Shown here piece after piece: positions 4,736 to 56,327 of a stretch of 64,000 bases of DNA (its first letter is position 1; every line of letters begins with the position of its first letter). The notes below the pieces were generated by a model. It worked only from the letters and a program-made list of their open reading frames with translations, was not told where the DNA came from and searched no databases. The stretch spans positions 18,607-82,606 of the forward strand of contig CAYISA010000001.1 of NCBI GenBank assembly GCA_964365955.1, read 5' to 3'. The stretch comes from an uncultured Candidatus Saccharibacteria bacterium (GTDB taxonomy: Bacteria > Patescibacteriota > Minisyncoccia > UBA6257 > GWB1-50-10). A program made the translations under genes and the position numbers.

Positions 4736-4766
4736 AAACCCCTGCGGTATGCGGGGGTTTTTATTT
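4736..4766. terminator. Bidirectional rho-independent terminator
   Basis: 10-bp stem (AAACCCCTGC / GCGGGGGTTT) with a 5-nt loop and flanking A/T runs, placed between convergent genes. Confidence 0.6.
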
Positions 4767-7700: not shown

Positions 7701-8553
7701 CCCCGATACAGACGTTTGCCGCAAACGTGGAAGTGGCGCTCACGGTTAAATCTCCGGTCACATCAAGCGCCGTTGCGGGAGCGACCGCCGAGCCAATACG
7801 AACATCAGATGCAAAACGAACATCGGCGGGATAGAAAAGCACCGTGGGACCGCTTGCGGTTCCATTCGGATAAAACTGGATTGAACCGCTCTGTGTGGCG
7901 CCTCCGCTGAAACCCATGTAGAAGCGATCGCCTGCCACATCATGTTTCTGCACCCATTGTCCCAATGTCGGACTTGAGGTCGCAATCCAAAACGCACCGG
8001 TCACCCGCGCGTTTCCCGCTACATCAAGCGGATAAGCGGGAGCAACTGTGCCAATGCCGACATTATCCCGCACATAAGCACTTCCATAAACTGAAAATGG
8101 CTGTGGCAAACCCGTTTTAGAAGACGTCGCGACACCAAGCGACGCGGGAAATGCAAAATTGCCTCCACCTTGCAAAGATCCGAATACACCGGAGCTGACA
8201 TTATCGGCAGAAAGCGCGCCGGAGAACGCACCTAAAAATGAGTTTGCTTGTACGTTCCCGTTCACTTGTAATGCCTGCGCGGGAGCCACGGTACCAATGC
8301 CAACATTTCCATTCGGGAAGAAAAGAATATGCTGGTTGGATCCTCCGGAAGTTTGGAACAGGAGCTGGGATTGAGAAGAATACACCGTGCTCGTCCCAAT
8401 CTGTAACGCGCGCGTAGACGATGCAAAAAGAATTCCGCAGTTGCCAGTAGGCGGATTCCCACATGGGCCTTGGAACGTTTGTGCGTCTGCAACACCCACA
8501 AATAGTGCGATGGCGGCGATAGAAAAAAGAATGAGGGTTGGAAATTTATTCAT
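4765..8553 (-). CDS. Large secreted surface protein (1262 aa) with tail-fibre-like NVGIGT..P..L.V.G repeats
   Basis: Signal peptide MNKFPTLILFSIAAIALFVGVADA. Gly/Ser/Thr-rich, with the motif GIGT(V/T)xPxxxLxVxG recurring at least 7 times. Contains an exact 121-aa internal duplication. Confidence 0.85.
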   Translation of the reverse strand: MNKFPTLILFSIAAIALFVGVADAQTFQGPCGNPPTGNCGILFASSTRALQIGTSTVYSSQSQLLFQTSGGSNQHILFFPNGNVGIGTVAPAQALQVNGNVQANSFLGAFSGALSADNVSSGVFGSLQGGGNFAFPASLGVATSSKTGLPQPFSVYGSAYVRDNVGIGTVAPAYPLDVAGNARVTGAFWIATSSPTLGQWVQKHDVAGDRFYMGFSGGATQSGSIQFYPNGTASGPTVLFYPADVRFASDVRIGSAVAPATALDVTGDLTVSATSTFAANVCIGEVCRNSWPAGSVTSVGSGSGLSGGPITTSGTLMLNMLGGTCGGTQKISSLSSTGTIVCSNDIDTVGVTSVTASLPLTSSGGATPNISISQANGTTNGYLSFTDWTTFNNKGNGTVTGAGTANYIPYWTSATALSGTSPLAVSGSNIGLGTTTPLYPFSVAGGADPLFGLFRSTAANPVVFKEGTDSAFVVNVAGADLLTLKNGFIGAGNGNTNPAYPLDVAGNARVTGAFWIATSSPTLGQWVQKHDVAGDRFYMGFSGGATQSGSIQFYPNGTASGPTVLFYPADVRFASDVRIGSAVAPATALDVTGDLTVSATSTFAANVCIGEVCRNSWPSGIGGSGIANYFTFWQNATNVTGTALLQINGGNVNATGPLQMSGTQFMDTSRNLSNIGTISSGAITILSGASSISSNITGTSGVLGVTNSNSATGLNSYGLKVAGGEAIFSGSGTPVSYGLFITPGRATNAGATSYGIYVTTTVPIGGLVRSAFFGDAIQIVDGTQGSGKVLTSDANGLATWTAPTGGTNFWSLSGNNLNPTSASYNVAVGATTPGTAKLAVVGNPGTGIFTVDDNVTGGIVSIGSDSSGQTHLTMGGSGSMDGQAGQLQIRGGGITVPIAFYTSSTLRAIFDTSGNMGIGVAAPSSKLEVLSTSPTDEVLRLSRTATATSTKFRVGLDGTLVIQNLASDAIFVRGANVGIGVSPSSYRFTVGSTNSTQGFAMAYFSEGTQASTAETYAVRAVHSGGAAAGRLAVGLSGESTWTGAGGTNVGGIFSAFGNTSNQGIRIGSPSAGAGNYAIYSLATAASYFAGKVGIGTTTPSALLSVGTTTTGLVAVFGGGTGKISVGTWDPVYTIGGKRYATYGAAMTGQKEETSGVARLAKQDGRYSASVDFKNAEEASDLWLFSKVTNLANHFDGMTVLLTPAFDGNVWYEKDAVTMRVIIYGSSEGEVSYRLTAPRFDSETLGNRRNDDVEGFNLDKLIR
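6701..7063. repeat. Intragenic direct repeat, copy 1 (363 bp)
   Basis: Identical by my reading to 7679-8041 (offset 978 bp). Shadow ORFs 6780-7019 and 7758-7997 translate identically. Confidence 0.9.
7679..8041. repeat. Intragenic direct repeat, copy 2 (363 bp)
   Basis: See copy 1. Identity breaks at 6700/7678 and at 7064/8042. Confidence 0.9.
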
Positions 8554-9115: not shown

Positions 9116-10117
9116 GTGGTATATAATAAATGTATGAAGTGGTTTCGCGTCCTATTTTGGATTTTTGTTGCCGTTGCGGTGCTACTGGCTCTTTTCCTTG
9201 CGTTTTATAAACCATCCGAAACCGCCCGTGCCGCCGGCACGAATATCAGCGCTTTTGATAGCGAACGTTTTGCATGGAACGACATGATTGGCTGGATCGA
9301 TTTTTACGGAACCAATGCCGTGATGGTGGGGACAAGTTCCATTACGGGTTACGCGAGTTCCGCGGCGGGAATTGTCGCGCTCGACTGTTCAACCGCGCCA
9401 GGCGGCTGTGGTGCGTGGAATTATGGCGTCTGCAACGGACGCGACTTAGCCCACCAAACCAATGGAACATGCACTACGGGAAGCGACGCGGGGAGCGGGT
9501 GGCTCTCCGGATACGCCTGGAACGATCTTGCGGGCTGGATTAGTTTTAGTTGCGCGAACCGTGGTGGATATCCTTGCACGGGTGAACAAGTGCGGATTCT
9601 CCCCGATGGGACCTTTGATGGATGGGCGTGGAGCGATTCGGTTGGCTGGATCAGTTTTAACTGCGCGAACACGGCGCAAGGATGCACCTCTCCCGGGCAC
9701 GACTATAAAGTAAAAAGCACATGGACCGCCTCGAATGCAGTCGGATATTTGGAATCTTCTGTATTTGACACGCAGATCCAAGGCGGCGCCATACTGAATA
9801 GTATCCTCTGGAAAGAAGGGGCACCGTCCGTGGGCACGTGCGTAAGTTTCCAAACCGCGGGATCGAATAACCCCGCAGGACCGTGGAACTTTTCGGGTCC
9901 CAGCGGAGACAGCAACGCGTACTATGGCGCCTCGTGCGATGCGGCAAGTGGAATTGCCGGAGGAACCGGGTGCGCCCCCAAAAACACATCCATCTGTGTG
10001 AATCCCCTCTATACGCAGAACTACAGATATGTAAAATATAAGGTAAGGCTCCAAAGCGATACCGCGCAGACAACTACGCCCGTCATTACCGATATCATTT
10101 TGAACTGGAGCCGCTAA
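9116..10117 (+). CDS. Secreted protein with three W-x-D-x-x-G-W-I-x-F repeats and a C-terminal domain shared with the 1855-aa protein
   Basis: N-terminal TM/signal FRVLFWIFVAVAVLLALFLAF. Repeats are WNDMIGWIDFYG, WNDLAGWISFSC and WSDSVGWISFNC. The C-terminus reads RYVKYKVRLQSDTAQTTTPVITDIILNWSR. Confidence 0.75.
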   Translation: MVYNKCMKWFRVLFWIFVAVAVLLALFLAFYKPSETARAAGTNISAFDSERFAWNDMIGWIDFYGTNAVMVGTSSITGYASSAAGIVALDCSTAPGGCGAWNYGVCNGRDLAHQTNGTCTTGSDAGSGWLSGYAWNDLAGWISFSCANRGGYPCTGEQVRILPDGTFDGWAWSDSVGWISFNCANTAQGCTSPGHDYKVKSTWTASNAVGYLESSVFDTQIQGGAILNSILWKEGAPSVGTCVSFQTAGSNNPAGPWNFSGPSGDSNAYYGASCDAASGIAGGTGCAPKNTSICVNPLYTQNYRYVKYKVRLQSDTAQTTTPVITDIILNWSR

Positions 10118-15619: not shown

Positions 15620-16084
15620 GTGATTCCATTATACCACACGCTTTTCATGAAACCAAAAAACAACCTCCCTCTGTACACCAGCACCTTTGTTTTGCTGTTT
15701 TTGCACTTTGGTGGAGTCATTTTTCACTGGTATAACACTTTTTATTCCTTTGATAAAATTGTCCACGTGGCCGGTGGATTCTGGATAGCTCAAATTATCC
15801 TTTTATTGTCCACAAAACACCAAACCGTTGCCTTCCCGAAAGATAAATTTATGAGGGCGTGTATCCTACTTATCAGTATGGCGGTGCTGGTGGGAGTTTT
15901 TTGGGAATTTTTTGAAGTCTTCGTTGGTAAAATAAGCATACTCCGGTACGGTACGGGCATAGAAAATCACCTCGCGCCCACCGATACCGCTTTTGATCTT
16001 TTTTTTGATTTTCTAGGGGCCACGCTTGCCGCCATCATCTTTCTTCCAAAAAAGAACGGCTCAACTAGTTCGTCTGGAGAATAA
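15620..16084 (+). CDS. Hypothetical integral membrane protein
   Basis: 154-aa ORF with about 4 predicted TM helices. No family recognised. Confidence 0.45.
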   Translation: MIPLYHTLFMKPKNNLPLYTSTFVLLFLHFGGVIFHWYNTFYSFDKIVHVAGGFWIAQIILLLSTKHQTVAFPKDKFMRACILLISMAVLVGVFWEFFEVFVGKISILRYGTGIENHLAPTDTAFDLFFDFLGATLAAIIFLPKKNGSTSSSGE

Positions 16085-16694
16085 TCGCGCCTGTGGACGA
16101 GGTGTAATCAATACTCGAGGAGGTAGCGAATGTGCTGGTCGTACCCGTTACCACCTGTTCCCCCACTGGACCGGTGGACCAATCCGTCTGTGTATACACA
16201 TTGTTCAGAAAACGGGAAAGATAGATCGTCTGCGAAGACGAGTCCGAGGTCCCTTCAAGATCCGTCCAACTCACCGTGATAATTGCTTTAAGTGTTGAGG
16301 GATCATAATATCCGCCGCTTGTCACAATATCTCCCGTTGAAGTTGAGCGATAAATGGGGCTAAGAGAAAACGAATGGGTGTAGGTGATGTTATTTAAAGG
16401 TGTTGTCGCGGTTCCCGCCGAACCATACACAATCCACTTCCCCGCGCTCGTTGTCGTAAAATACGCCGTGCTTGTCGCAAGGCCGCTAATATTATGCCAA
16501 TCCTCGCGCGCGATAGCGCGGAGCGCTTCAAGTTCTTCTTTCGCCAAAAATGCTCCCGCCCCTGCAGCACGCGTCTGGGGTACCGCCCGCAAAGATATCG
16601 AGGAAATGGAAGCTACGGATAGGCTGACGAGCACTAAAATAAGTGATGCGATAAGGATTTCCACAAGCACTTGACCGTTTTTTTTGTTTCCCAT
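16065..16694 (-). CDS. Type IV minor pilin-like protein
   Basis: Prepilin-type N-terminus KKNGQVLVEILIASLILVLVSLSV (G then Q, with E at +5). Confidence 0.6.
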   Translation of the reverse strand: MGNKKNGQVLVEILIASLILVLVSLSVASISSISLRAVPQTRAAGAGAFLAKEELEALRAIAREDWHNISGLATSTAYFTTTSAGKWIVYGSAGTATTPLNNITYTHSFSLSPIYRSTSTGDIVTSGGYYDPSTLKAIITVSWTDLEGTSDSSSQTIYLSRFLNNVYTQTDWSTGPVGEQVVTGTTSTFATSSSIDYTSSTGAIILQTN

Positions 16695-16815
16695 ACCCTT
16701 TTCAATCTATACTACCACACATAGAATTATCCACACATTCCTTTTCTATTCTCAAAGAATGGAGCTATACTAAATGCATCATTACAAGGTCGATTTAACT
16801 TTTCCTTTATTGATC

Positions 16816-17439
16816 ATGTTAAAAACACAAGAAAAGAGGGGGTTTACGCTTATTGAGCTGATTATTTCCATCGCGATTTTGGCAATTTTAGTCGCGGTTC
16901 TGGTAGTCGCAATCAACCCCGCTGAACAGCTGGCACGCTCCCGAGACGCAAAACGCGTTGCAGACCTTGATGCATTGAAATCTGCTTTAAACTTGTATCT
17001 TGCGACCGCCACGACAACCGTAAACTTGGATGGACAGGGAACCGCGAATACGCTCTGTTCCGGTGGAGGCGGGGCCGACACTATTTTCTTTAATAGCACA
17101 GCCGGAGCGACAACCAGCGGTGCATATGACGTGGGTCATACGTGGGTTGCGAAATCAGCAAGCTCGGGCCAGGCTATCGGAGCGTCGGGCTGGTTACCGG
17201 CACGTTTTGATTGGACGCCCGGAGGTTCTCCGATCTCCAACCTTCCGCTTGATCCAACAACTCCGGGAGGAGATTCCACCTATTTCTATTCCTATGCGTG
17301 TGAATCAACCAACAAACAATTTAAGTTGACCGCAAGACTCGAAAGCACTTATTTTGCGAGCGATCTGAACCTTGATGGAAATGACGGCGGAGCAACCTCC
17401 TCACTTTACGAAGTGGGAAGCAATCTTACGACGCTCTAA
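16816..17439 (+). CDS. Type IV pilin
   Basis: MLKTQEKRGFTLIELIISIAILAILVAVLV, a class III signal with FTLIEL. Start moved to the internal ATG at 16816. Confidence 0.8.
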   Translation: MLKTQEKRGFTLIELIISIAILAILVAVLVVAINPAEQLARSRDAKRVADLDALKSALNLYLATATTTVNLDGQGTANTLCSGGGGADTIFFNSTAGATTSGAYDVGHTWVAKSASSGQAIGASGWLPARFDWTPGGSPISNLPLDPTTPGGDSTYFYSYACESTNKQFKLTARLESTYFASDLNLDGNDGGATSSLYEVGSNLTTL

Positions 17440-17519: not shown

Positions 17520-19229
17520 ATGGCAATCACGCTCGGAAAGATAACAGATCTACTTGTAAAAGAGGGGGTGGTAAAAAAGGAAGAGGTTGCGACATTAGAA
17601 GAAGAAGCGAAACAGTTGGGCGCGACATTTTCGCGGTACTTAATCTCGCAGGGACGGCTTACCGAAAAACGGCTGAATGAAATCATCAGTACGTTTTTGA
17701 ATGTCCCTATTTTTGACATTAAGGAGCGAGCACTGAAGCCGGAATTTGTGGAACTGCTTCCGGAAGCGATCGCGCGCCAGCGTCAACTGCTTATTGTAGA
17801 CGCCGATCAGAAGAAAAAAACGTACTCGGTCGCGATGACGGACCCCACGGACATCGACACTCTTACCTTTCTTGCAGAATACCTGAACGGAACGATTGAC
17901 CCTTACCTCATTTCGTCCGAGGATCTGCGATTCGGGTTTCGTATTTACAAAAAAAAGTCCTCCGCCGAATTCCAAAAAATCATCAATGAGCGCATCAAAG
18001 AGCTCCGCACAACACTGAAGCGCGGTGCGGAAGGGAACATCCTCGAAAATGTTCCGCTGGTTCAACTTTTTGACGCGGTCATGGATTATGCGGCTATTTT
18101 GGATGCCTCGGATATTTATTTTCAGCCCGAAGAAGAACTCTTAAGAATCCGCTTCCGTGTGGATGGACTCTTGCGGGATATTTTTATAACGGATAAGGCG
18201 ATTAACGACGGAATTATTGCGCGCGCCAAGACACTTTCGGCACTGCGTATTGACGAACACGTGAAACCCCAGGACGGACGCTTCCGGTTCCGAACGAGCG
18301 ATACCGATCTGGATATCCGCGTTGCCATCATGCCGACATTTTTTGGCGAGAAACTGACACTCCGCCTTTTGGCGGGATCGCAATCGTTCCTCACCTTTGA
18401 AGAATTGGGTGTGAGCGATGTGATGGCTCAAAAACTCTATCAGACCGTCAAGCGCCCCTACGGAATGCTCTTGAGCGCCGGTCCTACCGGCTCCGGAAAG
18501 ACGACAACTATTTACAGTATTCTGACTCTTCTGAACCGACCCGAGGTTCATATCGCAACCATCGAAGATCCTATTGAATACATGATTCCGAACGTAAGCC
18601 AAACACAGGTGAATGTACAGGCAAATATTACGTTTGCGTCCGGGCTCCGCGCGCTCCTACGCCACAGTCCCGACGTTATTTTGATCGGTGAAACGCGCGA
18701 CGCGGAAACGGCCTCTATTTCAATTAATGCGGCGCTGACCGGCCATCTTTTGATTTCGAGCATCCACACCAATAATGCCCCGAGCGCGGTGGTGCGACTC
18801 CTGGACCTTGGCATTCCGTCTTTCCTTATAGCATCTACTTTGAACGCGGTGGTGGCACAACGCCTGGGAAGAAAAATCTGCCAGAACTGCATTGAGTCGT
18901 ATCCCACGCCTCCCAGCATCGCGAAACAGATACAAGAAGAGTTTGCGCGAGCGGGTAAAAAGAATCCGCCTCCCAAAAAACTCTACCGCGGAAAAGGATG
19001 CACAATCTGCGATAACACGGGGTACAAGGGTCGCACTGGTATTTTCGAAATTTTGGTCGTGAGCGAGAAAATTCGCGACATCATCGCAGGAACCCATTTC
19101 ACGCTCGACTCGCTTTCGGAAATGGCACGCGCGGAAGGAATGACCACGATGTTTGAAGACGGACTCGAAAAAGTGGAGCGCGGCGTTACCACTATTGAAG
19201 AACTATTCCGCATCATGAGCGCGGAATAA
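17520..19229 (+). CDS. pilB: Type IV pilus assembly ATPase PilB/GspE family
   Basis: Walker A GPTGSGKTT, Asp box, His box, and a C-terminal CxxC..CxxC tetracysteine motif. Confidence 0.9.
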   Translation: MAITLGKITDLLVKEGVVKKEEVATLEEEAKQLGATFSRYLISQGRLTEKRLNEIISTFLNVPIFDIKERALKPEFVELLPEAIARQRQLLIVDADQKKKTYSVAMTDPTDIDTLTFLAEYLNGTIDPYLISSEDLRFGFRIYKKKSSAEFQKIINERIKELRTTLKRGAEGNILENVPLVQLFDAVMDYAAILDASDIYFQPEEELLRIRFRVDGLLRDIFITDKAINDGIIARAKTLSALRIDEHVKPQDGRFRFRTSDTDLDIRVAIMPTFFGEKLTLRLLAGSQSFLTFEELGVSDVMAQKLYQTVKRPYGMLLSAGPTGSGKTTTIYSILTLLNRPEVHIATIEDPIEYMIPNVSQTQVNVQANITFASGLRALLRHSPDVILIGETRDAETASISINAALTGHLLISSIHTNNAPSAVVRLLDLGIPSFLIASTLNAVVAQRLGRKICQNCIESYPTPPSIAKQIQEEFARAGKKNPPPKKLYRGKGCTICDNTGYKGRTGIFEILVVSEKIRDIIAGTHFTLDSLSEMARAEGMTTMFEDGLEKVERGVTTIEELFRIMSAE

Positions 19230-19235: not shown

Positions 19236-20459
19236 ATGGCACGCTTTTCTTACGTCGCTCAAAATTCTGAAAATGAAATTAGCAAGGGAGTGATTGAGGC
19301 TCCCACGCACAGTGAAGCTGTACGTGTTTTGGTACGCAAGGGCCTTTCCCCTATTAAACTGGAGGTGTTTAAGGACGCGGGTGAAAAAAATAAAACGCTC
19401 CCCATTACTATTTCATTCCGGAAAAATCTGACGCTCTTTGACCAAATCAATATCCTGCGCCACCTAGGAACAATCCTGAACACCGGCACTGATCTTCTCT
19501 CGGGTCTCGATATCATCGCGAAAGACGCTATCAACCCATTGGTACAGAAAATACTTTACGATGTAAAAGAGCGCGTGGGACGCGGTGAGCGTTTTTCTGA
19601 CGCGATCGAAAAATGGAAGAGCCAGTTCAGCCCCATTTTTGTAAGTCTTGTACGCGCCGGAGAATCATCTGGAACGCTTCCAAAAACGCTGATTAGCTAC
19701 GCGCAAGAACTCCGAAAAGACTATTCGTTTTTCAGAAAACTTCGGAGCGCGGTAACTTATCCGGTTATTCTGGTGGTCGCGGTTGTTGCAATGATTCTTA
19801 TTCTTATCTCTATTGTTGTGCCGCGTTTAAAACAGCTTTTTTCCACTACGCGCGCCGCACCTCCCTTTTATACGAAATTTTTTATCGCTGTATCGGATTT
19901 TTGGCTCGCTCATCTATGGACGATCCTGGGAATTTTGGCAATTTGCGCGGTCGCGTTGATGATTGCGTTTCGTAAAAAAACGCTTCGTGAGAAATTAATG
20001 GAAATTCTTTGGTATTTCCCGGTCCTAAAAAAAATAAACAGGAATCTTATTCTTTCCCGATTCACTAAAACGATTGCGAACCTGATTGATGCGGGATTTT
20101 CTCTAAAAGAAGCTCTCCACACAACCGAAGAAGTAGTGGGACCGAAACACAGAAAAGCGCTCAAAGAAATTGCGGAAGCAAAACTAGCAAAAGGTGTGGA
20201 ATTTTCTGAGGCACTAAAATCCTACGAAGATCTTTTTCCGCGTATTTTAGTGAGCGTGATAGCAACCGGCGAAAAAAGTGGACAGCTTTCTTCCGTGCTT
20301 CTCCAGATGGGCGAGTTCTATGAGGAAGAAGTTTTGTATTCATTAGAACTCTTCTTGACGCTCATTGAACCATTGCTTCTTGTCTTTGTGGGTCTGGTTG
20401 TGGGGCTAATGGCTGCATCTATTATTTCTCCGATTTACAGCTTAATCGGCCACTTCTAA
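19236..20459 (+). CDS. pilC: Type IV pilus platform protein PilC/GspF family
   Basis: 407 aa with duplicated GspF-type domains and 3 TM helices. Confidence 0.88.
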   Translation: MARFSYVAQNSENEISKGVIEAPTHSEAVRVLVRKGLSPIKLEVFKDAGEKNKTLPITISFRKNLTLFDQINILRHLGTILNTGTDLLSGLDIIAKDAINPLVQKILYDVKERVGRGERFSDAIEKWKSQFSPIFVSLVRAGESSGTLPKTLISYAQELRKDYSFFRKLRSAVTYPVILVVAVVAMILILISIVVPRLKQLFSTTRAAPPFYTKFFIAVSDFWLAHLWTILGILAICAVALMIAFRKKTLREKLMEILWYFPVLKKINRNLILSRFTKTIANLIDAGFSLKEALHTTEEVVGPKHRKALKEIAEAKLAKGVEFSEALKSYEDLFPRILVSVIATGEKSGQLSSVLLQMGEFYEEEVLYSLELFLTLIEPLLLVFVGLVVGLMAASIISPIYSLIGHF

Positions 20460-20461: not shown

Positions 20462-20932
20462 TTACTCCACTGAAACTTTCCCTTCTGCCGAGACGGAAAC
20501 GGTTTTTGTTTTAGAGGCATCCGTGGCAAGTTTAAACTGCACCGATGTGCCGGTTGCAATCGTTCCGCTCAATTTTGTAAATAGGATCTCCGTGCTGCTC
20601 CCCTGCGAGAGCGTCGCGTAACGCACCAACGTTCCAAGATTAAAAACGGTGCTTGATGCACTTACATAAGTGGATCCTGGGAAAATCGCATAAAAAGGTG
20701 TTGTAGTGGCATTCTCAAAATGAACACCCCAAGCCAAACCGTCGACGCCAGCAAAGGCGCGACCGCGTGCTTCTCGCACTCTGGTTGCCACTCCCTGCGC
20801 TTCCGACTCAAGAGAACCGATTTCCTGATTTTTGAACATCAGAAGAGCAGCACTCCCCGCAATGCCGAGAAACAGCACAACAATAATAAGCTCGATGAGC
20901 GAAAAACCCGCTTTCTGATTGCGCGTGTGCAT
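20462..20932 (-). CDS. Type IV pilin-like protein
   Basis: MHTRNQKAGFSLIELIIVVLFLGIAGSAALLMF. Start moved to the internal ATG at 20932, 2 nt after the upstream stop. Confidence 0.75.
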   Translation of the reverse strand: MHTRNQKAGFSLIELIIVVLFLGIAGSAALLMFKNQEIGSLESEAQGVATRVREARGRAFAGVDGLAWGVHFENATTTPFYAIFPGSTYVSASSTVFNLGTLVRYATLSQGSSTEILFTKLSGTIATGTSVQFKLATDASKTKTVSVSAEGKVSVE

Positions 20933-20933: not shown

Positions 20934-21137
20934 TTAATCCTGAACTTTTTCAATTTGGAAGGCGGGGAGCTGATGTGCGGGCGCTTTCGGCACCCGAAAC
21001 GCCATGAGTCCCTCCCGCACGACAAACTGCACAAGGAACGCCGCACATACCACAAGAATAATCACGTACACAAGTGCCGCGGCTCCTAAATAAGATTCGA
21101 AATTTTTTGATTTATAAAAACGTTGCAACATAACCAT
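20934..21137 (-). CDS. Small single-pass membrane protein in the pilus operon
   Basis: ATG at 21137 overlaps the upstream TAA (TAATG). TM helix GAAALVYVIILVVCAAFLVQFVV. Tightly packed between pilO-like and pilin genes. Confidence 0.45.
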   Translation of the reverse strand: MVMLQRFYKSKNFESYLGAAALVYVIILVVCAAFLVQFVVREGLMAFRVPKAPAHQLPAFQIEKVQD

Positions 21138-21724
21138 TATTCTCCCCGCGTAAAGATAGTACCTGAAAATGCCATCCGAAAATTTCCTCCCGATGGGGCA
21201 AACGACCATTGCCGAATCTGGATCGTGGTCTCCAATCCTTCCACCGCAATAAGAAAATTACTAAGCGCAGTGATGTTTCCTTCCGCTTTGGCGGAAAATT
21301 CGAATCCCCCACCTCCGGGGACAACCCCCGGGAGTTCAACACCCAGAGAAATTTCAAGCGGAAACCCGTACTGGAGCGCCAACGCCCGCACTAAAGGAAA
21401 AATCTTCGTGGGCACGTCAATGGAAAGAGGGAGGGATTTTTCGAGCTCGCCGCGCAGAGCGTTCGCAATCGGACGTTTTTTATTCAACTCCGCAATCTCG
21501 TCGAATTGTTCTAAAACGCGGGCGAATTCACCTTTCGCATTATCCGCCTGTGCCACTTCTTTTTTGATCAGCAAAGAAAGCACAACAAGCGCGACCGCAG
21601 AGAGCGTCAGAATCATTCCGAAGATCACCAGCGTAAATCCAACGCCTTGTCCGAATTTTTGTGTTCCTGGCTGTTCCGGCTTCGGTATGGTTTCTGTTTT
21701 TTTTATATTTTTTTCGTTTTCCAT
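21137..21724 (-). CDS. PilO-like pilus assembly protein
   Basis: Short cytoplasmic N-terminus, one TM (GFTLVIFGMILTLSAVALVVLSLLI), a coiled-coil and a C-terminal domain. Position follows the pilM/N fusion. Confidence 0.55.
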   Translation of the reverse strand: MENEKNIKKTETIPKPEQPGTQKFGQGVGFTLVIFGMILTLSAVALVVLSLLIKKEVAQADNAKGEFARVLEQFDEIAELNKKRPIANALRGELEKSLPLSIDVPTKIFPLVRALALQYGFPLEISLGVELPGVVPGGGGFEFSAKAEGNITALSNFLIAVEGLETTIQIRQWSFAPSGGNFRMAFSGTIFTRGE

Positions 21725-21730: not shown

Positions 21731-23206
21731 TTAAAGGCGTAATAATGCATTAAGAGTAAGGTTTTTTTCGGGTGCCAAGTCTGTGAGCGGGATAGAGACC
21801 TCCGTGACAATCTTTTGTGATTCCATGCGCCGCTTGAACTCCAAGATAGAATCGCGCGAAGCGGCGGTAAACACGCCTGCGATACCCTCATTCGCGGAAG
21901 AAAGACTGGTTATTCCCACTCCCGTTTCGGCGGCAATCTTAGCAATCGCTCCGATCCGCTTCCCCGCGACGGTCTGAAGATTTTTTGCTGCTCGAAACGC
22001 ATCCACTAGCGCGTTAAATTTTTGCGCCTCATCGATCACTGGTTGGGACTGTGGAACCAATCGTTCAAAAATAGCACTTTGATTTCGAATATCGCGATTT
22101 AATGTGGCATTTTGATATTTTAAAAACGCAAACATGCCCGCAAATGCCAGCAAAAAGGAAAATGTATAGACAAAGAGAATTTTTATCCAGAGATTCAGCG
22201 TACGCAGAGAAAGGTTTTCCTGATATCGCCCTCCGAACTCCGACGGAATGAGATTAATCGAAATGTCCGCCGCCGCATAAGGCCGGAATGCGGCGCCATG
22301 GGCGATTAAAAGACGAGGATCGGAATACGCGGGCCGCGAATCCGGAAGAAACGGTTGTGTCGGAATACCGGTAATGGTACGAATAGAAGAGATAACACCC
22401 TCGCGGTTCACGCGGTCAAAAACAAAAATGCGCTCGATAGAAAATTTCAGGTTCGACTCAACAAAACTGGTGAGCTGGCGAATTTTTCCTTCCAACACTT
22501 TAGTGGCTTCTTCTTCGCCCGCGACCGGATGCAAAAAATGTGCCACAACCACACCCTTAAAAAACACAGCGAACTCGATTCCGTCTTCGTCAATTAAGGC
22601 GAAAATAAACGATGGCACACTTGCCTGATCCACAAACTTCGCAAGACTCAAAATGTGGAACTCTATTGCCCCCACTCTCCATCGCTCACCGGAAGTAATC
22701 TGTAGGTAATTCCGGATGGTTTTCTTGTTCACCGCTACGATAAAAACAATATGTTCCTCTTTCTCCGGAATATAAGTTGATGTCCAATCGATATGGGCGT
22801 CTTCGATCGGCCACGGAAGAGAAGCTTCGGCTTTTAGCATGACGGCATTTTTAAGTTCTTCCGCATCCATTTCCGGGAACACTACCGTTTCGGTGTACAT
22901 CTTGTGGGAAGGAATCGAAAGAACGAATACCGGCTCCACGGTAAATTTAAAATGTCGGGCGGGAACGGTTCCTAAGAGCGCTTTAATACCCGTCCGTACC
23001 GGAACAGGGTCCGAAATTTCTCCGTGCTCGATGGATGCCTCCGGGACGTCGTAGATACCCGAAGAGAGGACGGAAATTTTATCGCCGTGCCGAAGCGTTG
23101 CAACACCCGCAATGTGCTTGTCCTGAATATCCAACCCCACCAACACAAATTTGGGAAACACCAACCGTGAAATTTTTCTTAGTATTTTTTCAAGCGCTTC
23201 TTTCAT
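21731..23206 (-). CDS. pilM: PilM-PilN fusion-type pilus assembly protein
   Basis: N-terminal actin-like ATPase fold (LVGLDIQDKHIAG..), then a TM (ILFVYTFSFLLAFAGMFAFL) plus a PilN-like periplasmic part. Confidence 0.7.
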   Translation of the reverse strand: MKEALEKILRKISRLVFPKFVLVGLDIQDKHIAGVATLRHGDKISVLSSGIYDVPEASIEHGEISDPVPVRTGIKALLGTVPARHFKFTVEPVFVLSIPSHKMYTETVVFPEMDAEELKNAVMLKAEASLPWPIEDAHIDWTSTYIPEKEEHIVFIVAVNKKTIRNYLQITSGERWRVGAIEFHILSLAKFVDQASVPSFIFALIDEDGIEFAVFFKGVVVAHFLHPVAGEEEATKVLEGKIRQLTSFVESNLKFSIERIFVFDRVNREGVISSIRTITGIPTQPFLPDSRPAYSDPRLLIAHGAAFRPYAAADISINLIPSEFGGRYQENLSLRTLNLWIKILFVYTFSFLLAFAGMFAFLKYQNATLNRDIRNQSAIFERLVPQSQPVIDEAQKFNALVDAFRAAKNLQTVAGKRIGAIAKIAAETGVGITSLSSANEGIAGVFTAASRDSILEFKRRMESQKIVTEVSIPLTDLAPEKNLTLNALLRL

Positions 23207-23208: not shown

Positions 23209-23601
23209 CTACTGGTTGTTTTTTGAAATAGTTGTGATGACCCCATTGCTATCGATTGTTATGGACGCACGCAACGAACGTTTAATCGTCCCCAAGGGTT
23301 TCGCTACGGTAGAGGTTGCCACCACAACAACCGGGTTTCCCTGCGTTACCGAGATATCGGTCGTGGAACCGTCCGACTCTGTAAGCGTATAACTTCCAGC
23401 GTAATCTTTATTACGCGCGAGCTTCAGTGTTGCGTCTTGTATACCCGTTTCCGCAAGCGCCTGTGCTACTTCTGCCGTTCGTTCTGAAAATCCTGTAAAT
23501 ACCGAGGTGCCGCTTTGGATGCCCATTAAGATGCTTACGCTCAAAAGAAAAAGCGTGATAACAAGAACGGTGGCAAGCGATACGATGCCGCGATTCTTCA
23601 T
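23209..23601 (-). CDS. Putative minor pilin / PilX-like protein
   Basis: 130 aa with hydrophobic N-terminus MKNRGIVSLATVLVITLFLLSV. 4-nt overlap with the upstream pseudopilin gene. Confidence 0.5.
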   Translation of the reverse strand: MKNRGIVSLATVLVITLFLLSVSILMGIQSGTSVFTGFSERTAEVAQALAETGIQDATLKLARNKDYAGSYTLTESDGSTTDISVTQGNPVVVVATSTVAKPLGTIKRSLRASITIDSNGVITTISKNNQ

Positions 23602-24095
23602 AGGGAAAGCGCTGCTGTCTCCAATGTGTAGAGCGATTTTGTATCAGCGGCGCTCCCTTCATTATACCCTCCCGTGATGCGGATTTGAACGGATGAGGTC
23701 GCAGTTCCTTGGGAACTGGTGTTGTTAAGTTTTGTAAAAGAAAGTGCGGTTACATAAATTGTGGAAGGAGTGACGGCGACAGCTGTACCGGTCCCTTCCT
23801 GCATCATCAGAGCTCCGCTTGCAAGCGAAAACACCGTGGGATTTTTGGTACTGTCGGACATCTTAAGATTCAGCGTCGTCGAGGCACCGTTGATATCCGT
23901 CGCCGTATAAACCTTATCAACCATCTGTTGTAATGCCTGCTGCACTCCGCTTTGCGCTTCCGTTAACCGATTGGTGGTGTCTTTGGTGCGAAGCGCAAAA
24001 TCGAACACGGTGGCGCCGAGGGTCGCGACAATCGCAAAGATGACGATATAAATCATCATTTCAATCAGCGTAAATCCCGATCGCTTATTTTGCAT
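23598..24095 (-). CDS. Prepilin-type N-terminal cleavage/methylation domain protein (minor pilin)
   Basis: MQNKRSGFTLIEMMIYIVIFAIVATLGATVF. Confidence 0.75.
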   Translation of the reverse strand: MQNKRSGFTLIEMMIYIVIFAIVATLGATVFDFALRTKDTTNRLTEAQSGVQQALQQMVDKVYTATDINGASTTLNLKMSDSTKNPTVFSLASGALMMQEGTGTAVAVTPSTIYVTALSFTKLNNTSSQGTATSSVQIRITGGYNEGSAADTKSLYTLETAALSL

Positions 24096-27000
24096 AATTT
24101 AAAATAATATCCGTGACCGTGGGTGTTGTGGAACTGCTTGTGGTCTCTAAAAACACCTTGTACCGAATATACCGCTTGTTCTGCTGACACACTGCTTTTA
24201 GTTCCACCGCGGTGTTGGGTTCGCTGGTGCCGGTCGGCGGATAATAGGAATTCGAATCGCAGGCGACGGATGGGTTATTCGAACCTGATCCATTCCATGC
24301 GGTATAGGTCCACGGACTCGATGTGGTATCCGACCCCGCAAACTGGAATTTTACCGTTGTGTTGGTTGGGCGCGTCCCCTGCCAGGTAATGGAGTTCGGC
24401 GCCGTGCCGCTTGCCACCGCCGTATCGTAAATAACGGAGGTGAGTGATGAAGAAGTGGCGTACCCCTGCGAAACCGTTAATGTCGTCACGCTTGCCGCGG
24501 TGCTGGTGGGACCATTTCCGTAACTATTCACTCCCATCACTTTATACCAGTAGGTTGTGCTTTGGGTAAGCCCCGTATCGGTGGAAGATGTAATCGTGGT
24601 CGAGGCCACTAGAACATAGATTCCTCCGGAGCTTGTTGAACGGAAAAGATTGTACGAAGTCGTGCTGGATGCCGCGGTCCAGTTTACCACCACGGAAACG
24701 CCCGTTACATACGGAAATGTTGGCGTTCCCGGAGTTCCCGGAAGCGGCCAGATCCAACAACTATTCCCTCCGCTATCCAAAGAATCATCTGTCACGGAGA
24801 TACTTCCGCTTCCGCACGCGTCTGAATCTTTAACGTCCGTCGACGAAACAATTTTGGCGCCCGCAACCGTTAACAACCACGGTGATCCCGCAGAAGAACT
24901 CCTTACCCCAACCCGCGATGTGGTCGCCTGTCCGTTCCAATTTAAGCTATTAAAAGTGTACGTACTACCCGCGTTGAAACGCACGGTGGTAGATGCGGTC
25001 ACAATCGTGGATGTCGCAACGGTCGTTGCGTCAGCCGTCAAGCGGATTGCCGGAGCCGCAAGTGTTCCGGAATTGTTCGAAAATGCAAGATGATTGAACG
25101 CGGAAGTTCCTACCTCCATCGGTCCCATGCTCCCTGTAAGCGTTTGTGCGGACGTTCCGTTGAATGTCACCTGCCCGCTATTGTGCGTAAAGGTGCCATT
25201 ATTCGTGTAATTACCTCCTATTGAAATAGTCCTGACAGCGTTCGCCTTGAATGTGGAACTTGTGGCGATAAGCATCGCGCCCGTCACACTGATCGTTGTA
25301 TTATTCGGACTTGCGTCTACTACTCCCGTATGCGTTCCGTCTCCTGCCGTAAGTTGCCCCCCGACAATAAAAGTACCAGCCGCAAATTGATGCGCGGAAG
25401 TACTGCTCGGCATAACATCTAGATTGTAATAGGTAGCGACGGTAATCGTTGTGACAGCAGCGCCGTTATATTTTACCTTTCCTGTACCTGCGGAAAACGC
25501 CAAACTCACGGGCGATTCGTTGATCACAAAAGGTGTGCCGCTTGAAGCAAAGGTAATAGTGTAGCTCGATCCAGCAAGCGTATTAGTGCCGTTTGAAGAA
25601 TCATTGATAGTGAGAATGTTGTTGACCGTCGTGTCGCCGGAAAATGTATATGTGGTCGTGGCGGTCGACGTTCCGACCTGTAAATTGTAGTAGGGGTTTG
25701 CTGTAACCATCGTGCTTGTCGTTTGGCCTGCATATACAACCGTGCTCGTGCCCGCTTGGAACGTGATTGTGTCCGATACAACCATCGGCGTCCCCGTACC
25801 AGAAAATTGTATTGTGCGGCCGCGTGCGTAAATATCGGCGCTCGGATTCATCGTCCATACTTTTTTCACGACAAGATTTCCAGTCCCGCCGCTTCCAAGA
25901 TATAACCTACTCCCTGCTTCATGATTGCCTCCGCAACTGGCACACGTGGTAGTTAAATTATTGAACGTCCAATCATTCGAGCCGCTTGTGGTGCCGAGTG
26001 TTCCACCCGTGGTATAAAACGTTACCGTGTGATCTACATTGGTTAAATTCACCGTACCACAGGTAGCTCCACAGGTGATAGAACTGGTTGTGGCATTCCC
26101 TATTAATTGAATATTCGCGCTTCCGTTTGAATTATCCAGCGTCCCATTCGCGACCAGAAGCGAATCAATCACTGCGGTCGAAGTTGCAAAGCTCCATCCG
26201 CCCCCCGACCCGTTGAACACCACGGTTGGAAGACTTACTTGAAAGCCCGCCGCAAGCGCTCCCGCGTTGATCATGTGCCCTGTTGAGGTGGCACCAAACG
26301 TCACGGTGCCGGTGCTCGCGCCTCCCTGTCCGTTGTTCAAATAATCGCTATTGAACGCAAAGGTTCCTCCTCCCGCAAAGGTAGCGGTTCCGGTTGCCAC
26401 TGTAAAAAGATTATTGACGGTGGAAGGACTTTGAAGCGCGAATACTTCGCTTGCATTATTCAGCGTCAGTTTATAATAGGTGGTTGAAGCCACTAATGTA
26501 TTCCCCACAGTATAATTTCCGGTAAATTGTACGGTGGAGGTCACAGCATTAAAAGTTCCGGAGAGTAAAAATGGCGTGGCTACATTCCCGACATTCGAGA
26601 GCGTCCATGTCTTTCCGCCCGCCGAAAACGTATGCCCCGCAGAAACAGTAAGCACACCGCTCACTGTCATCGCGCCCGCGCCTGTTGATGTGGTCGTCTG
26701 CGAGGAACCGTTTACGGTAAGGCTGGAAAAAGTCCAGTTGGTTGCACCACCTAAACTTCCGGCGCCGCTGATCGTTGCTGTCCCCCCCGTAAGTGTGACA
26801 GTTCCTGCACCGGTGATATCGCCTCCATTCACGGTAAAATTTGAGGTCCCCGCAAGCGTTCCGGCCGTCACGGTAACATCATTTGAAACCGTTGCGGCAC
26901 CTCCCAGCGTGTACGTTGCGGTACCGTTGGTGTCCAAATTCCAATAGGTTGCGGCAGTGATCGTTGTTGCGGAAGATCCACGATAACTGAACGTAGAACT

Positions 27001-29652
27001 TCCGGGAGTTGACGTCGCTCCGGTCGGGGCAATCACAAACGGCGTTCCTGACCCCAATAAATAAATTGATCCCGTTCCGCCATTTAACGTATTGGTGCCG
27101 GTCGTGGAGCTTGCAACGGTTATCGTGTTTTGGATGGTAGAATATCCGCCGGTTCCAACTCGCAACGTATAGGTAGTACTTCCGGTAGATGTTCCTACAA
27201 AAAGATCCCAATAGGTTGCGGCACCGATATTCGTACTGGTAGTGATTCCGATGTAGCGGACGGTGCTGCTTGCCGCATTAAAGACTCCGGGGTTTGGAAT
27301 CTCTCCACCCGGATATCCCTGGACCACGAAGGGAGACCCCGTGCCGGTTACGGTAATCGTCTTCGTAGAAGTCGCACTTAACGTTGCGCTTCCGCCGCCT
27401 CCGCTTGTCATGGTGATACTCGTCGCTACGATATCGCTATTCAATTGAACCGTATAGGGAGTGGATCCGTTTGTATTAATACTGATAATCCCTAAATCTT
27501 GGAGCGCCGGATTGCTGTCTTGTAATGTTTTGGTACCGCCTGGACTTAAGGTGATCGTCCCGGTTCCTTTTGTGTAGGTGAGTTGGTTGGTTCCACAAAC
27601 ACTCGTACAATCTCCGACGATAAAATTCCCCTTCACCGTGATGCTCGGATTATACGATGATGCGTCTACAGTTGCCGCGGCATCACGAAATAATCTAAAA
27701 TCACCGTTCACTGTAATTGTCTGGCCCGTTGTTGTAGCTAAATAATAAATATTTGTACTCTGGGGTTTTAAAGACAAATTAAAATAACTTGTCGCGGGGA
27801 TATCCGTAGAACCATTTCCGCTAAAAGCAACGGTGCCTGTTGTTGATGGAAGAGCCCCATAGCTTGTGATCTGAAGGGGCGTACTAATAATTCTTCCAAT
27901 CCCCGAAATCGTAAGTGTATAAGGCCCGGGTGAAAATGTATCAGTCGCACTTGAACCGGAGTTCCCAATTGTGACTCGATTTGTAACCGTTGTATCGCCT
28001 CCCAAGGTATATGTAACCGCTGAAGCATCTGCGCTTACACCAACTTGGAGGCCGTAATAAGCATCCGAAACAGCGATTGTGGTGGCGGTTGTCGCTGTAT
28101 AACTGACAGTCCCTGTTCCTCCACTTAGTGTTCCCTTGCTTGTAATTACAAAAGGCGTCCCCGAACTCGAAAGTGTAAGCGTGGCAATACTTAAGGCAAG
28201 CGTATCGGAGTTTCCCGAACCGGCATTCCCAACCGTCACGACACCTGCGGCAGTTGCGTTCCCGCCTAACGTAAAAGTGACCGCCGACGAGTCAGCTGTC
28301 GTCCCAACTCCAAAATTATAGTACGCGACCGCGGCAAGCGTGACAGAAGACGTGGCGGTGTAGTTAATCGTACTGGTACCGATTGTGAACGTGCCCGAAA
28401 CACAAAATGGTATCACGGTGTTCAATGCGCCCGTGCACGTGGCGGATGTCCCCGGGCGATTGAGTGTTATAGTATTCCCGTCGGGGGTAAACGTTCCAAT
28501 GACATACAGGGCACCCACGTTCACCGCTCCGCCGGGTTGGAATGTTTTCCCAGAAGCCACAATCACTTTCGCGGATGTTGCATTCAACACCCCTCCTGAA
28601 ACCGTAAAGGGAATATCCGTATCACTCACACTGTCATACGTTCCGACATTCGCATTAGTGATAGGTCCGGAGTCCTCATGCCGCAAAATCACGCGCCCCC
28701 TATAGACATCAATTCCGCTTAAATTCGTTCCTGAATAACGCGTTACGGTCGCGCCCACCCGCGTGGCACTTCCGTTGTCCATATAGACAGTGATCACGGT
28801 GCTTGTCGAGGGCTGTGTCATAGTAACGGTGTAGGTTCCTGGTGCTCCCGCGCTTGTAGAAGACGCCACACTCCCCCCTACTACCACTTTAACCGTGGAA
28901 GATGTCGCTGTAACCCCTTCGTCTTGATAAATCGTACCCGCAATTGTGATCGAAATCGCCGGTGGCGTGTAGGTAATTGTTGCATACACTTTAGAGAGTT
29001 GGACGTAAATTGAGTTCGAGTAAGAGCCACCGTCTCCATCATCGCAGGTTCCGTCGTCCGGGATCGTAAGCCCCACCTCAAGCGTTGAGGTGGTTCCTTT
29101 TACATAACTAATGGAGTGCGACTGGGTACTTGATGTAAATGTATCCGTCATCGTGATCGCGCTTCCGAAATCTGTCGAGGCGCCGTCCAAAACCCGGACG
29201 GATTTTGCAGTCGGATAAACGCTAATGGTCGGAGCGCTTCCCCCCGCACAAACGGAGTACTCATCAATTGCCGCATTTGCCGAAAACGTAATATCGATCG
29301 CGGTAATTGTGGAACCGACCGGAATATTGGTCCAGTCCGTTGTTGATGTAGAGAGTTTAAATGTCTGCCGCGTATTAATGATCTTACTAAAAACCGTAGT
29401 CGTATCATTGTTGTCGTTCACTTTTATATAGCAAACATTCGCGCTGCAATCCTTCAGTGGGAGTATCTGGTATGCCCACGATGCCGAGTCGTTGGTACCA
29501 TCCGCTACAGGATGGATCGCACCCGTTGTTGTTCCGTGCGCAATATACGGAATACCGCCCAAAAAAAGAAAAATGGCGGCGACAAAAAAAAATGTTCTCC
29601 GCGTTGAAGTTGCAAGCATTTTAAAGATTATAGCACACTTTTTATCCTTCAT
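24085..29652 (-). CDS. Giant secreted Thr/Ser/Gly-rich repeat protein (1855 aa) with FN3-like domain; putative pilus-associated adhesin
   Basis: Signal peptide ..RRTFFFVAAIFLFLGGIPYIAHG. At least 8 repeat units of roughly 90-120 aa, each carrying Y(Y/W)NL and TYTLGG motifs. FN3-like segment PGTPTFPYVTGVSVVVNWTAASSTTSYNLFRS..YWYKVMGVNSYG. First gene of the minor-pilin operon, overlapping the next gene by 11 nt. Confidence 0.85.
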   Translation of the reverse strand: MKDKKCAIIFKMLATSTRRTFFFVAAIFLFLGGIPYIAHGTTTGAIHPVADGTNDSASWAYQILPLKDCSANVCYIKVNDNNDTTTVFSKIINTRQTFKLSTSTTDWTNIPVGSTITAIDITFSANAAIDEYSVCAGGSAPTISVYPTAKSVRVLDGASTDFGSAITMTDTFTSSTQSHSISYVKGTTSTLEVGLTIPDDGTCDDGDGGSYSNSIYVQLSKVYATITYTPPAISITIAGTIYQDEGVTATSSTVKVVVGGSVASSTSAGAPGTYTVTMTQPSTSTVITVYMDNGSATRVGATVTRYSGTNLSGIDVYRGRVILRHEDSGPITNANVGTYDSVSDTDIPFTVSGGVLNATSAKVIVASGKTFQPGGAVNVGALYVIGTFTPDGNTITLNRPGTSATCTGALNTVIPFCVSGTFTIGTSTINYTATSSVTLAAVAYYNFGVGTTADSSAVTFTLGGNATAAGVVTVGNAGSGNSDTLALSIATLTLSSSGTPFVITSKGTLSGGTGTVSYTATTATTIAVSDAYYGLQVGVSADASAVTYTLGGDTTVTNRVTIGNSGSSATDTFSPGPYTLTISGIGRIISTPLQITSYGALPSTTGTVAFSGNGSTDIPATSYFNLSLKPQSTNIYYLATTTGQTITVNGDFRLFRDAAATVDASSYNPSITVKGNFIVGDCTSVCGTNQLTYTKGTGTITLSPGGTKTLQDSNPALQDLGIISINTNGSTPYTVQLNSDIVATSITMTSGGGGSATLSATSTKTITVTGTGSPFVVQGYPGGEIPNPGVFNAASSTVRYIGITTSTNIGAATYWDLFVGTSTGSTTYTLRVGTGGYSTIQNTITVASSTTGTNTLNGGTGSIYLLGSGTPFVIAPTGATSTPGSSTFSYRGSSATTITAATYWNLDTNGTATYTLGGAATVSNDVTVTAGTLAGTSNFTVNGGDITGAGTVTLTGGTATISGAGSLGGATNWTFSSLTVNGSSQTTTSTGAGAMTVSGVLTVSAGHTFSAGGKTWTLSNVGNVATPFLLSGTFNAVTSTVQFTGNYTVGNTLVASTTYYKLTLNNASEVFALQSPSTVNNLFTVATGTATFAGGGTFAFNSDYLNNGQGGASTGTVTFGATSTGHMINAGALAAGFQVSLPTVVFNGSGGGWSFATSTAVIDSLLVANGTLDNSNGSANIQLIGNATTSSITCGATCGTVNLTNVDHTVTFYTTGGTLGTTSGSNDWTFNNLTTTCASCGGNHEAGSRLYLGSGGTGNLVVKKVWTMNPSADIYARGRTIQFSGTGTPMVVSDTITFQAGTSTVVYAGQTTSTMVTANPYYNLQVGTSTATTTYTFSGDTTVNNILTINDSSNGTNTLAGSSYTITFASSGTPFVINESPVSLAFSAGTGKVKYNGAAVTTITVATYYNLDVMPSSTSAHQFAAGTFIVGGQLTAGDGTHTGVVDASPNNTTISVTGAMLIATSSTFKANAVRTISIGGNYTNNGTFTHNSGQVTFNGTSAQTLTGSMGPMEVGTSAFNHLAFSNNSGTLAAPAIRLTADATTVATSTIVTASTTVRFNAGSTYTFNSLNWNGQATTSRVGVRSSSAGSPWLLTVAGAKIVSSTDVKDSDACGSGSISVTDDSLDSGGNSCWIWPLPGTPGTPTFPYVTGVSVVVNWTAASSTTSYNLFRSTSSGGIYVLVASTTITSSTDTGLTQSTTYWYKVMGVNSYGNGPTSTAASVTTLTVSQGYATSSSLTSVIYDTAVASGTAPNSITWQGTRPTNTTVKFQFAGSDTTSSPWTYTAWNGSGSNNPSVACDSNSYYPPTGTSEPNTAVELKAVCQQNKRYIRYKVFLETTSSSTTPTVTDIILNYAK

Positions 29653-32591: not shown

Positions 32592-32622
32592 GCCTCGGCA
32601 ACTTGCCCGCCCACCATTCTTG

Positions 32623-32693: not shown

Positions 32694-32781
32694 GATAAAC
32701 AAGCTTATGGTGGGCGGGTAAAAATGCCGCGTAATACCACTTTACTATGGGCCCCAAAATCAATTTTCAAAATGTCTGAAT

Positions 32782-35158: not shown

Positions 35159-35165
35159 CGACATT

Positions 35166-55833: not shown

Positions 55834-55841
55834 AGATTTGA

Positions 55842-56327
55842 TTAACGCCCGAACTGGCTCCCTAACGCGACACAGTAGGCATTCTGATCCGCACACGTAC
55901 ACGAAGGAATGGAATCCCGAACGCCGTCCGGGACATTACGTGGACTTGCGTTATAAGACGCGGCATTTGTAGGCATAAAACTCGGCGTTTCCGTACCGCG
56001 GTTATTTTCAAGGCAGATCCCTACCACGTATCCCTCGGGTGGCGCGGGAATATACGCATACTCGCCGCCCTGCGGATCGGTGGGAAGCCCCGGAATCACA
56101 CGCGCGACACCGGTTCCGTAAAATTGGTTCGCTGTAGGATACCGATTGGATGAGGAGTGATAGGCCTCAAGTCCATTCTGGATCTGCCGGATATCGGCGA
56201 TTCTACGGGCATCCCGTGCTCGGCTACGCGCAGGACCAATTCCCACAAGCACAACCGAAGAAAGGAGGCCGATAATCGCGACCACCACAAGCATCTCAAT
56301 TAATGTAAACCCACTGTTTTTTTTCAT
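55842..56327 (-). CDS. Type IV pilin
   Basis: MKKNSGFTLIEMLVVVAIIGLLSSVVLVGI..ARDARRIADIRQIQNGLEAY. Confidence 0.85.
   Translation of the reverse strand: MKKNSGFTLIEMLVVVAIIGLLSSVVLVGIGPARSRARDARRIADIRQIQNGLEAYHSSSNRYPTANQFYGTGVARVIPGLPTDPQGGEYAYIPAPPEGYVVGICLENNRGTETPSFMPTNAASYNASPRNVPDGVRDSIPSCTCADQNAYCVALGSQFGR

Follow-up and report, generated by a model that had tools for sequence, protein, structure and literature searches.

In a 64,000-nucleotide (nt) stretch of the genome of an uncultured Candidatus Saccharibacteria bacterium (the window, in which all coordinates below are positions), a giant gene encoding 1855 amino acids (aa; 24085..29652, minus strand) belongs to an operon of minor-pilin genes, and its product ends in a small domain, here called C-dom, that is homologous to a domain of Patescibacteria minor pilins. 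In the view that we favour, with slightly better than even confidence, the giant protein is not a pilin; exported via Sec, it would dock through C-dom onto the minor-pilin complex responsible for priming and capping the type IV pilus, either as a component of this complex or as its cargo. Patescibacteria, which live attached to other microbial cells, account for a large part of bacterial diversity, and type IV pili are their best-supported attachment device; to our knowledge, how these pili acquire host specificity is largely unknown. The testable rule that emerges here is that one small C-terminal domain marks the proteins of the minor-pilin complex, be they pilins or giant secreted proteins, and this rule picks candidate host-recognition proteins from thousands of unannotated giant genes.

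C-dom occupies residues 1730-1855 of the giant protein (24088..24465, minus strand) and is a galactose-binding-domain-like jelly roll of approximately 125 aa. A search with the last 242 residues of the protein retrieved proteins of 310-346 aa that begin with prepilin N-termini (GQSLIELLVA...), score above the gathering threshold of PF07963 and carry C-dom at the C-terminus. In an exhaustive profile search, 2062 cluster representatives were obtained at E<=1e-3 and 936 at E<=1e-10 (clusters at 50% identity), so that C-dom defines a large family of more than 2000 clusters; neither a Pfam or NCBIfam model nor, by profile search, a PDB sequence relative was found for it. The domain lies almost always at the extreme C-terminus, in proteins of 110-2600 aa, and in a scan of metagenomes it ends 0-3 residues from the C-terminus at 80/80 loci. 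Pilins make up roughly a quarter to a third of the top set, and the rest are Sec-type proteins with very different passengers. The conserved features of the family (S..D, W.G, VKFQ.A, RY.RY and a terminal ..I(I/L)N(W/Y).. strand) are all present in the giant protein. Structural models give C-dom a beta-sandwich jelly-roll fold resembling carbohydrate-binding modules (CBM6/32/36/61), the sugar-binding domain of Fbs1/PNGase, discoidin and MAM. Sequence identity to its fold relatives, among them CBMs and jelly-roll domains of podophage tail nozzles, is 3-14%, and a similarity of modelled folds is by itself no proof that C-dom binds glycans.

The window also encodes p209 (16065..16694, minus strand), a truncated minor pilin of 209 aa (GQVLVEILIA...) of the GspI position, which is the pilin half of the ancestral pilin plus C-dom protein. 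Over its full length, p209 matches the pilin module of C-dom pilins (1e-27 to 1e-10), and it ends exactly at the C-dom boundary. When p209 is joined to residues 1730-1855 of the giant protein, the alignment with 23 fused pilins is collinear, identities are 31-39% and both halves contribute to the 19 invariant columns. In the model of this chimera of p209 and C-dom, a classical pilin (helix 6-64 plus a sheet) precedes the jelly roll, with a predicted local distance difference test score (pLDDT) of 83 overall and 83-91 at the junction. Truncated p209 orthologs are present at L032 and L002 (L-numbers denote compared loci, P-numbers homologous proteins). These alignments show an ancestral pilin plus C-dom protein that was split in this lineage, with the giant gene keeping the ancestral slot.

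Such fission has recurred in many lineages. A truncated GQxxxE pilin of approximately 200-237 aa lies immediately upstream of 17/32 non-pilin C-dom genes, and 16 of the 17 end at the same boundary as p209. Between the new signal peptide and C-dom stand passengers as different as GWIDF-repeat modules (approximately 290 aa) and, at the upper end, proteins of 1128 aa and 2660 aa. At L024 (243-1812), a GASLLE pilin of 224 aa precedes a C-dom open reading frame (ORF) of 292 aa that lacks an obvious signal peptide; the pair could represent either a split of recent date or a fused pilin broken by a frameshift.

The position of C-dom genes is equally regular. We compared 23 loci from GTDB species genomes, which span Paceibacterota, Saccharibacteria, Komeilibacteria, Nomurabacteria, Parcubacteria, Brennerbacteria and others. 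In approximately 20 of the 21 informative loci, the gene order is PilB, PilC, H-like pilin, C-dom protein, J-like pilin, K-like protein and PilM, and in most of the GTDB loci the C-dom gene is itself a pilin. Because of this position between the H-like and J-like pilins, we assign the C-dom gene to the GspI/PilV slot of the canonical H-I-J-K block, the minor pilin of which ends in C-dom in most Patescibacteria. In the window, the H-like gene is displaced to the end of the operon, and the J, K and PilM neighbours are arranged as elsewhere. The metagenome scan was seeded with non-pilin C-doms and run with a 7-sequence alignment, a 25-sequence alignment being too degenerate for scanning contigs; type IV pilus genes lie within 6 kilobases of the C-dom gene in 40/48 loci with sufficient flank (8/9 of the pilin type and 32/39 of the non-pilin type). 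Every minor-pilin block examined contains exactly one C-dom, fused or split.

The giant gene is tied to its operon at the nucleotide level as well. As the original prediction had it, the giant gene overlaps by 11 nt the gene that comes after it, which encodes a 165-aa prepilin (J165); the overlap, with the stop of the former and the start of the latter, can be read directly as ATGCAAAATAA (24085-24095). The J165 start codon sits within the Tyr-Ala codons of the conserved ...LNYA(K/R/Q) end of the giant protein. Four orthologs of 42-57% identity head equivalent operons. Because the 11-nt overlap is identical in all five loci, the window included, while pilin-fused C-doms terminate in ...NWSP, unlike the ...NYA(K/R/Q) of the giant orthologs, we propose that the start of J165, which overlaps them, may limit the choice of terminal residues in the giant protein. 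The genes that follow lie on the same strand with a spacing of -4 to +6 nt, in agreement with the tightly packed run of pilus genes described earlier.

A map of 75 homologs shows which parts of the giant protein go with the pilus. The central repeats (residues approximately 220-1640) are common to approximately 45 giant Patescibacteria proteins, and the N-terminal (1-228) and C-terminal (1640-1855) parts to only approximately 7. The two repeat-only relatives that were examined, P0010 and P0017, have unrelated neighbourhoods and are not linked to pilus genes, whereas the orthologs sharing both termini always head the same operon; we therefore take the repeats to be generic and the pilus link to reside in the termini, and most of the approximately 45 repeat-sharing proteins not to be pilus-linked. 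Linkage of homologs to pilus genes, the point on which the original prediction turned, consequently holds for C-dom genes (approximately 83-95% of informative loci) and for the orthologs with both termini, and fails for the repeat-only relatives.

These data also bear on the idea that the giant protein is just one of the generic giant surface proteins of Patescibacteria, adjacent to pilin genes by accident. Giant surface proteins are indeed frequent in Patescibacteria (PMC8080830), and the shared repeats and the two unlinked repeat-only relatives are what this idea would predict. It is at odds, however, with the preservation of synteny and of the 11-nt overlap down to 42% identity, with the homology of C-dom to pilin domains and its linkage to pilus genes, and with a Brennerbacteria locus in which an unrelated passenger of 817 aa (Gly-rich/Ig/FN3) carries the same C-dom in the same slot. 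We consider incidental adjacency largely refuted and very improbable.

The two ends of the protein differ in how fast they change. Compared with L002, identity is 25% for the N-domain (residues 41-228) and 75% for C-dom, the latter close to J165 (67%), K130 (the product of the gene after J165; 78%) and PilC (76%). Compared with L003 and L004, it is 27-31% for the N-domain, and 50% and 42%, respectively, for C-dom. Judged by these identities, C-dom evolves like machinery and the N-terminus like a specificity determinant. The conserved C-terminal module of the original prediction is C-dom, the pilin-derived nature of which had gone unrecognised there, and the model of the C-terminus that had been called for consists of an FN3 domain plus the jelly roll.

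If the giant protein is part of the minor-pilin complex, it would first be exported via Sec and its signal peptide cleaved. C-dom would then dock non-covalently onto the minor-pilin complex, the likeliest partner being p209, its former covalent partner, by Rosetta-stone logic, because the two are fused elsewhere. J165 is translationally coupled to the giant gene and may lie next to the docked C-dom. The giant protein would be built in at the pilus tip during priming, pilus extension would carry the long repeat stalk outward, and the variable N-domain at the end of the stalk would contact the host surface.

Several observations weigh against this view. Eight of the 48 metagenome C-dom loci have no neighbouring pilus genes, and the same is true of a second C-dom gene in the window (9134..10117). 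The chimera model has a predicted template modelling score (pTM) of just 0.54, and its confidence is driven by the alignment of fused homologs. Furthermore, p209 and the giant gene are not adjacent in this genome, and an ortholog of p209 was not found in the examined parts of L003 and L004. Among non-pilin C-dom proteins, 110/117 have no adjacent pilin "tail" segment, which makes C-dom autonomous; for this reason we dropped the notion of obligate strand complementation of the jelly roll by the p209 tail (QTDWSGG...GSITL). Finally, the modelled fold is of a carbohydrate-binding, lectin-like kind, so that C-dom could be an adhesive element rather than a dock.

The last point leads to the alternative of a free-standing surface adhesin, co-expressed with the pilus and unattached to it, in which C-dom would be a lectin or CBM for glycans of the host or of the cell's own wall. 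Besides the fold, the size and promiscuity of the C-dom family (approximately 70% of the top set non-pilin, with varied passengers) and the members unlinked to pilus genes are in line with this alternative, as is the reading of the PilX1 and PilX2 modules of TM7x as lectins (PMC11623550). A free adhesin gives no reason, however, why each minor-pilin operon has one C-dom gene at one fixed position, fused or split, and leaves without account the shared end boundary of the truncated pilins, the extreme C-terminal location of C-dom and the conserved translational coupling to the next pilin. Moreover, C-dom is conserved like machinery and not like a determinant of host specificity, and the giant protein has no other recognisable anchor. 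On these grounds, we regard a free adhesin as unlikely and continue to favour a protein docked on the minor-pilin complex.

Docking need not imply adhesion. The giant protein could instead be a priming or assembly factor lacking an adhesive role, or a substrate that a pseudopilus, working as a piston like that of type II secretion systems and recognising C-dom, pushes through the wall. That the gene lies within the core minor-pilin block, and that every operon retains one C-dom, fits either role; C-terminal licensing is established for PilC/PilY1, GspK and CpaL (PMC13533445), and a single conserved C-terminal domain on diverse passengers is reminiscent of the C-terminal domains of secretion substrates. 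A pure assembly factor is nevertheless hard to reconcile with passengers that measure 150 to 2500 residues, contain adhesin-like repeats and have N-termini that evolve fast. The last strand of C-dom (residues approximately 1845-1854) lies within the jelly roll in monomer models (pLDDT 82-90) and is not predicted to be a free donor strand. A secretion signal would be needless for the pilin-fused forms, and the monoderm-like Patescibacteria have no outer membrane for a substrate to cross. We therefore find both roles quite improbable, and retain the preference for a tip-located protein docked by C-dom.

In a bolder form of this proposal, C-dom would be a universal, detachable adaptor of Patescibacteria type IV pili, plugging Sec-exported passengers interchangeably onto the tip complex; we regard this tentatively as possible, if on the doubtful side. 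The passengers may then include GWIDF-repeat proteins, giant solenoids and LamG-, DUF2341- or Kelch-like proteins, and one organism could arm the same pilus with alternative tips. The window has two C-dom proteins and only one truncated partner pilin. The second C-dom protein (9134..10117, plus strand) has approximately 327 aa, with a Sec signal peptide, GWIDF/GWISF repeats and C-dom (2e-29 with the hidden Markov model). Its gene is followed by those for CorA, CysRS, DnaB and RecR, not by pilus genes, and L111 is arranged alike. The same protein architecture is found between a truncated pilin and a K-like gene in many loci, and the 327-aa protein is possibly an alternative partner of the same pilus.

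The GWISF/GWIDF module is itself distributed over different carriers. It occurs on the J-position pilin in L008 (6849-7805) and L007 (9247-10917), and on a Sec-exported C-dom protein in L054 (7479-8333), L087, L103 and L105, loci in which no J165-like pilin was detected. After C-dom, it is the second tip module seen to be shuffled between carriers anchored as pilins and carriers that are secreted. In addition, the GspH-like minor pilin is hugely extended at L007 (4125-7835), L023 (3404-5617) and L052 (4065-5201). At L007 it reaches 1236 aa, contains repeated units of an Ig/FN3-like type and has a Cys-rich C-terminus. A pilin can thus be a direct carrier of giant modules as well.

In kind, both a large non-pilin on the tip complex of a type IV pilus and a binding module grafted onto a minor pilin are already known. 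Streptococcus sanguinis PilB and PilC are modular minor pilins with grafted binding modules. It is the extreme C-terminus, provided either in trans or in cis, that keeps PilC/PilY1, MshQ and CpaL at the tip (PMC13533445), and in Saccharibacteria, minor pilins with jelly-roll and propeller modules have been implicated in host binding (PMC11623550). C-dom itself, its fused-or-split distribution and its coupling of giant repeat proteins to a pilus operon were not found in a limited search of the literature.

The original prediction placed the giant gene in the operon position of PilY1/PilC-type tip adhesins. Part of this comparison stands: like PilY1/PilC and MshQ, the giant protein is a large, Sec-exported non-pilin encoded within a minor-pilin operon, with a conserved C-terminal and a variable N-terminal part. 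The C-terminus of PilY1/PilC attaches to the minor-pilin complex in trans (PMC13533445), and the giant protein would dock by analogy. The operon slot, however, is a different one, since the giant gene has the GspI/PilV position upstream of J and K, whereas the PilY1 gene lies downstream of pilX. The resemblance is one of mode and not of homology: in keeping with the lack of similarity already noted in the original prediction, the whole giant protein gave no match at E<=0.1 to PF05567 or any other family, PilY1/PilC included, and searches against Pfam and NCBIfam returned nothing useful. Further differences are that the giant protein ends in the jelly roll and PilY1 in a beta-propeller plus a free donor strand, that the partner would be the I-position pilin rather than PilK, and that the passenger is a repeat stalk of approximately 1600 residues.

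Fused C-dom pilins resemble PilX1 (jelly roll) and PilX2 (propeller) of Nanosynbacter lyticus TM7x in combining a pilin module with a C-terminal module. The giant protein, in contrast to such modular minor pilins, has no pilin module; the jelly roll has moved to a Sec-exported protein and the pilin is left truncated. The supply of a tip element in cis on a minor pilin, as in GspK, or in trans, as in PilY1, with CpaL/TadG as a further parallel, and always at the extreme C-terminus, is a precedent (PMC13533445). C-dom would be a second, non-homologous example of a tip element that either is part of a pilin or comes with a large adhesin as a separate protein. In the beta-strand addition model, a strand of approximately 10 residues completes PilK; what is exchanged here is instead an entire autonomous domain associated with the I-position pilin.

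From its N-terminus, the giant protein comprises a Sec signal peptide, the N-domain, a beta-sandwich region, repeats of approximately 90 aa, FN3 and C-dom. The ORF is 1855 aa long, as predicted, with Met12 as an alternative start that fits the orthologs better, and P0001, a partial hypothetical protein from a Patescibacteria metagenome-assembled genome at NCBI, is 100% identical to it. The signal peptide (residues 1-40; 29533..29652, minus strand), also predicted originally, is of the Sec type and not a prepilin leader: reading of the sequence reveals a basic n-region and a hydrophobic core of 17 residues, and an AxA-like cleavage site (AHG/AHA/ARA) is kept across six orthologs, with probable cleavage after AHG. 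The G-F-T-L-x-E prepilin motif is absent, and the protein falls outside the type IV pilins as defined by PF07963, with G/A-x-x-x-x-E and a hydrophobic helix. The N-domain (28969..29532, minus strand) is fast-evolving, common to only approximately 7 proteins and restricted to pilus-linked orthologs; a homolog search with the N-domain alone gave no matches.

Residues 229-1630 (24763..28968, minus strand) form a beta-sandwich-like region followed by degenerate Thr/Ser/Gly-rich repeats of approximately 90 aa. At least 8 units of approximately 100 aa had been predicted, and eight are real and slightly shorter, marked by Y[YWF]x[LF] at residues 444, 532, 623, 814, 903, 1059, 1321 and 1408. In a unit-against-unit comparison, 14/28 pairs align in register at E<1e-3, versus approximately none in 20 shuffles. 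The repeats are seen only in this way, as no off-diagonal matches appeared when the whole protein was compared with itself by blastp; a repeat profile found no sequence relative in the PDB, and Pfam likewise had no match to the repeats. The repeats are a putative beta-solenoid stalk, and two relatives carry PF12951 or "autotransporter-associated beta strand" labels. The predicted FN3-like domain (residues 1631-1729; 24466..24762, minus strand) has both the fold and the sequence signature of FN3 at approximately 1634-1729, and is optional, being absent from the orthologs P0004 and P0005.

Downstream of the giant gene and on the same strand, J165 (23598..24095) is a minor pilin in the GspJ/PilW position (N_methyl 1.8e-9; weak GspJ/ComGF matches) and homologous to J-position pilins at other loci. 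K130 (23209..23601) is minor pilin-like, with 130 aa, no E5 and a weak DUF2509/YgdB match, and its homologs occupy the equivalent GspK/PilX position in 30+ loci. A 491-aa PilM-like protein (21731..23206; TIGR01175 at 1e-10 on residues 21-168) has a C-terminal transmembrane segment and an extracytoplasmic part, is kept in orthologous loci and is possibly a PilM/N fusion. It is followed by a 195-aa transmembrane protein (21137..21724) that is PilO-like in position only, with no Pfam or NCBIfam match, by a transmembrane protein of approximately 65 aa (20934..21131; orthologs 65-78 aa), and by H156 (20462..20932), a GspH/FimU-like minor pilin of approximately 156 aa (TIGR01708 2e-8) the true start of which is at approximately 20932, at an internal Met. 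On the plus strand, convergent with the operon, lie the genes for the assembly ATPase PilB (17520..19229) and the platform protein PilC (19236..20459). A probable major pilin (16774..17439, plus strand; N_methyl 1.6e-8) has homologs upstream of pilB in many loci. In a promoter and terminator scan, sites were no more frequent than in shuffles, and no terminator-like sites lie between operon genes except for weak internal ones.

The operon sits in an ordinary chromosomal context, with no sign of a mobile element around it. Seven tRNA genes (Ala, Pro, Arg, Lys, 2x Met, Asp) at 32622-33026, 35084-35612, 42224-42507 and 43842-43918 are scattered amid housekeeping genes (CCA-adding enzyme, RecG, PheRS). 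A gene that diverges from the giant gene, and is conserved beside it in L001/L032, encodes a secreted 919-aa BNR/Sortilin protein (29757-32516, plus strand) that ends in Por_Secre_tail (4.7e-9), as does a 482-aa secreted protein (3276-4724, plus strand; 3.1e-8). This C-terminal sorting domain of the type IX secretion system is odd here, such a system not being expected in Patescibacteria. A 1262-aa Thr/Ser/Gly-rich protein (4765..8553, minus strand), the N-terminus of which is signal-peptide-like, was ruled out as a relative of the giant protein (best BLASTP E 0.78; no C-dom).

Two pilus systems have been reported for Saccharibacteria TM7x, as in the present organism: a second type IV pilus cluster, separate from the giant-gene operon, extends over 53083-63572 on the minus strand. 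It encodes PilM (62448..63572), PilB (59235..60980), PilT (58127..59200), PilC (56908..58113), two pilins (approximately 55842-56800), the prepilin peptidase PilD (54919..55902) and three more pilin-like ORFs (53083-54888), and it contains the only PilT and PilD seen in the window.

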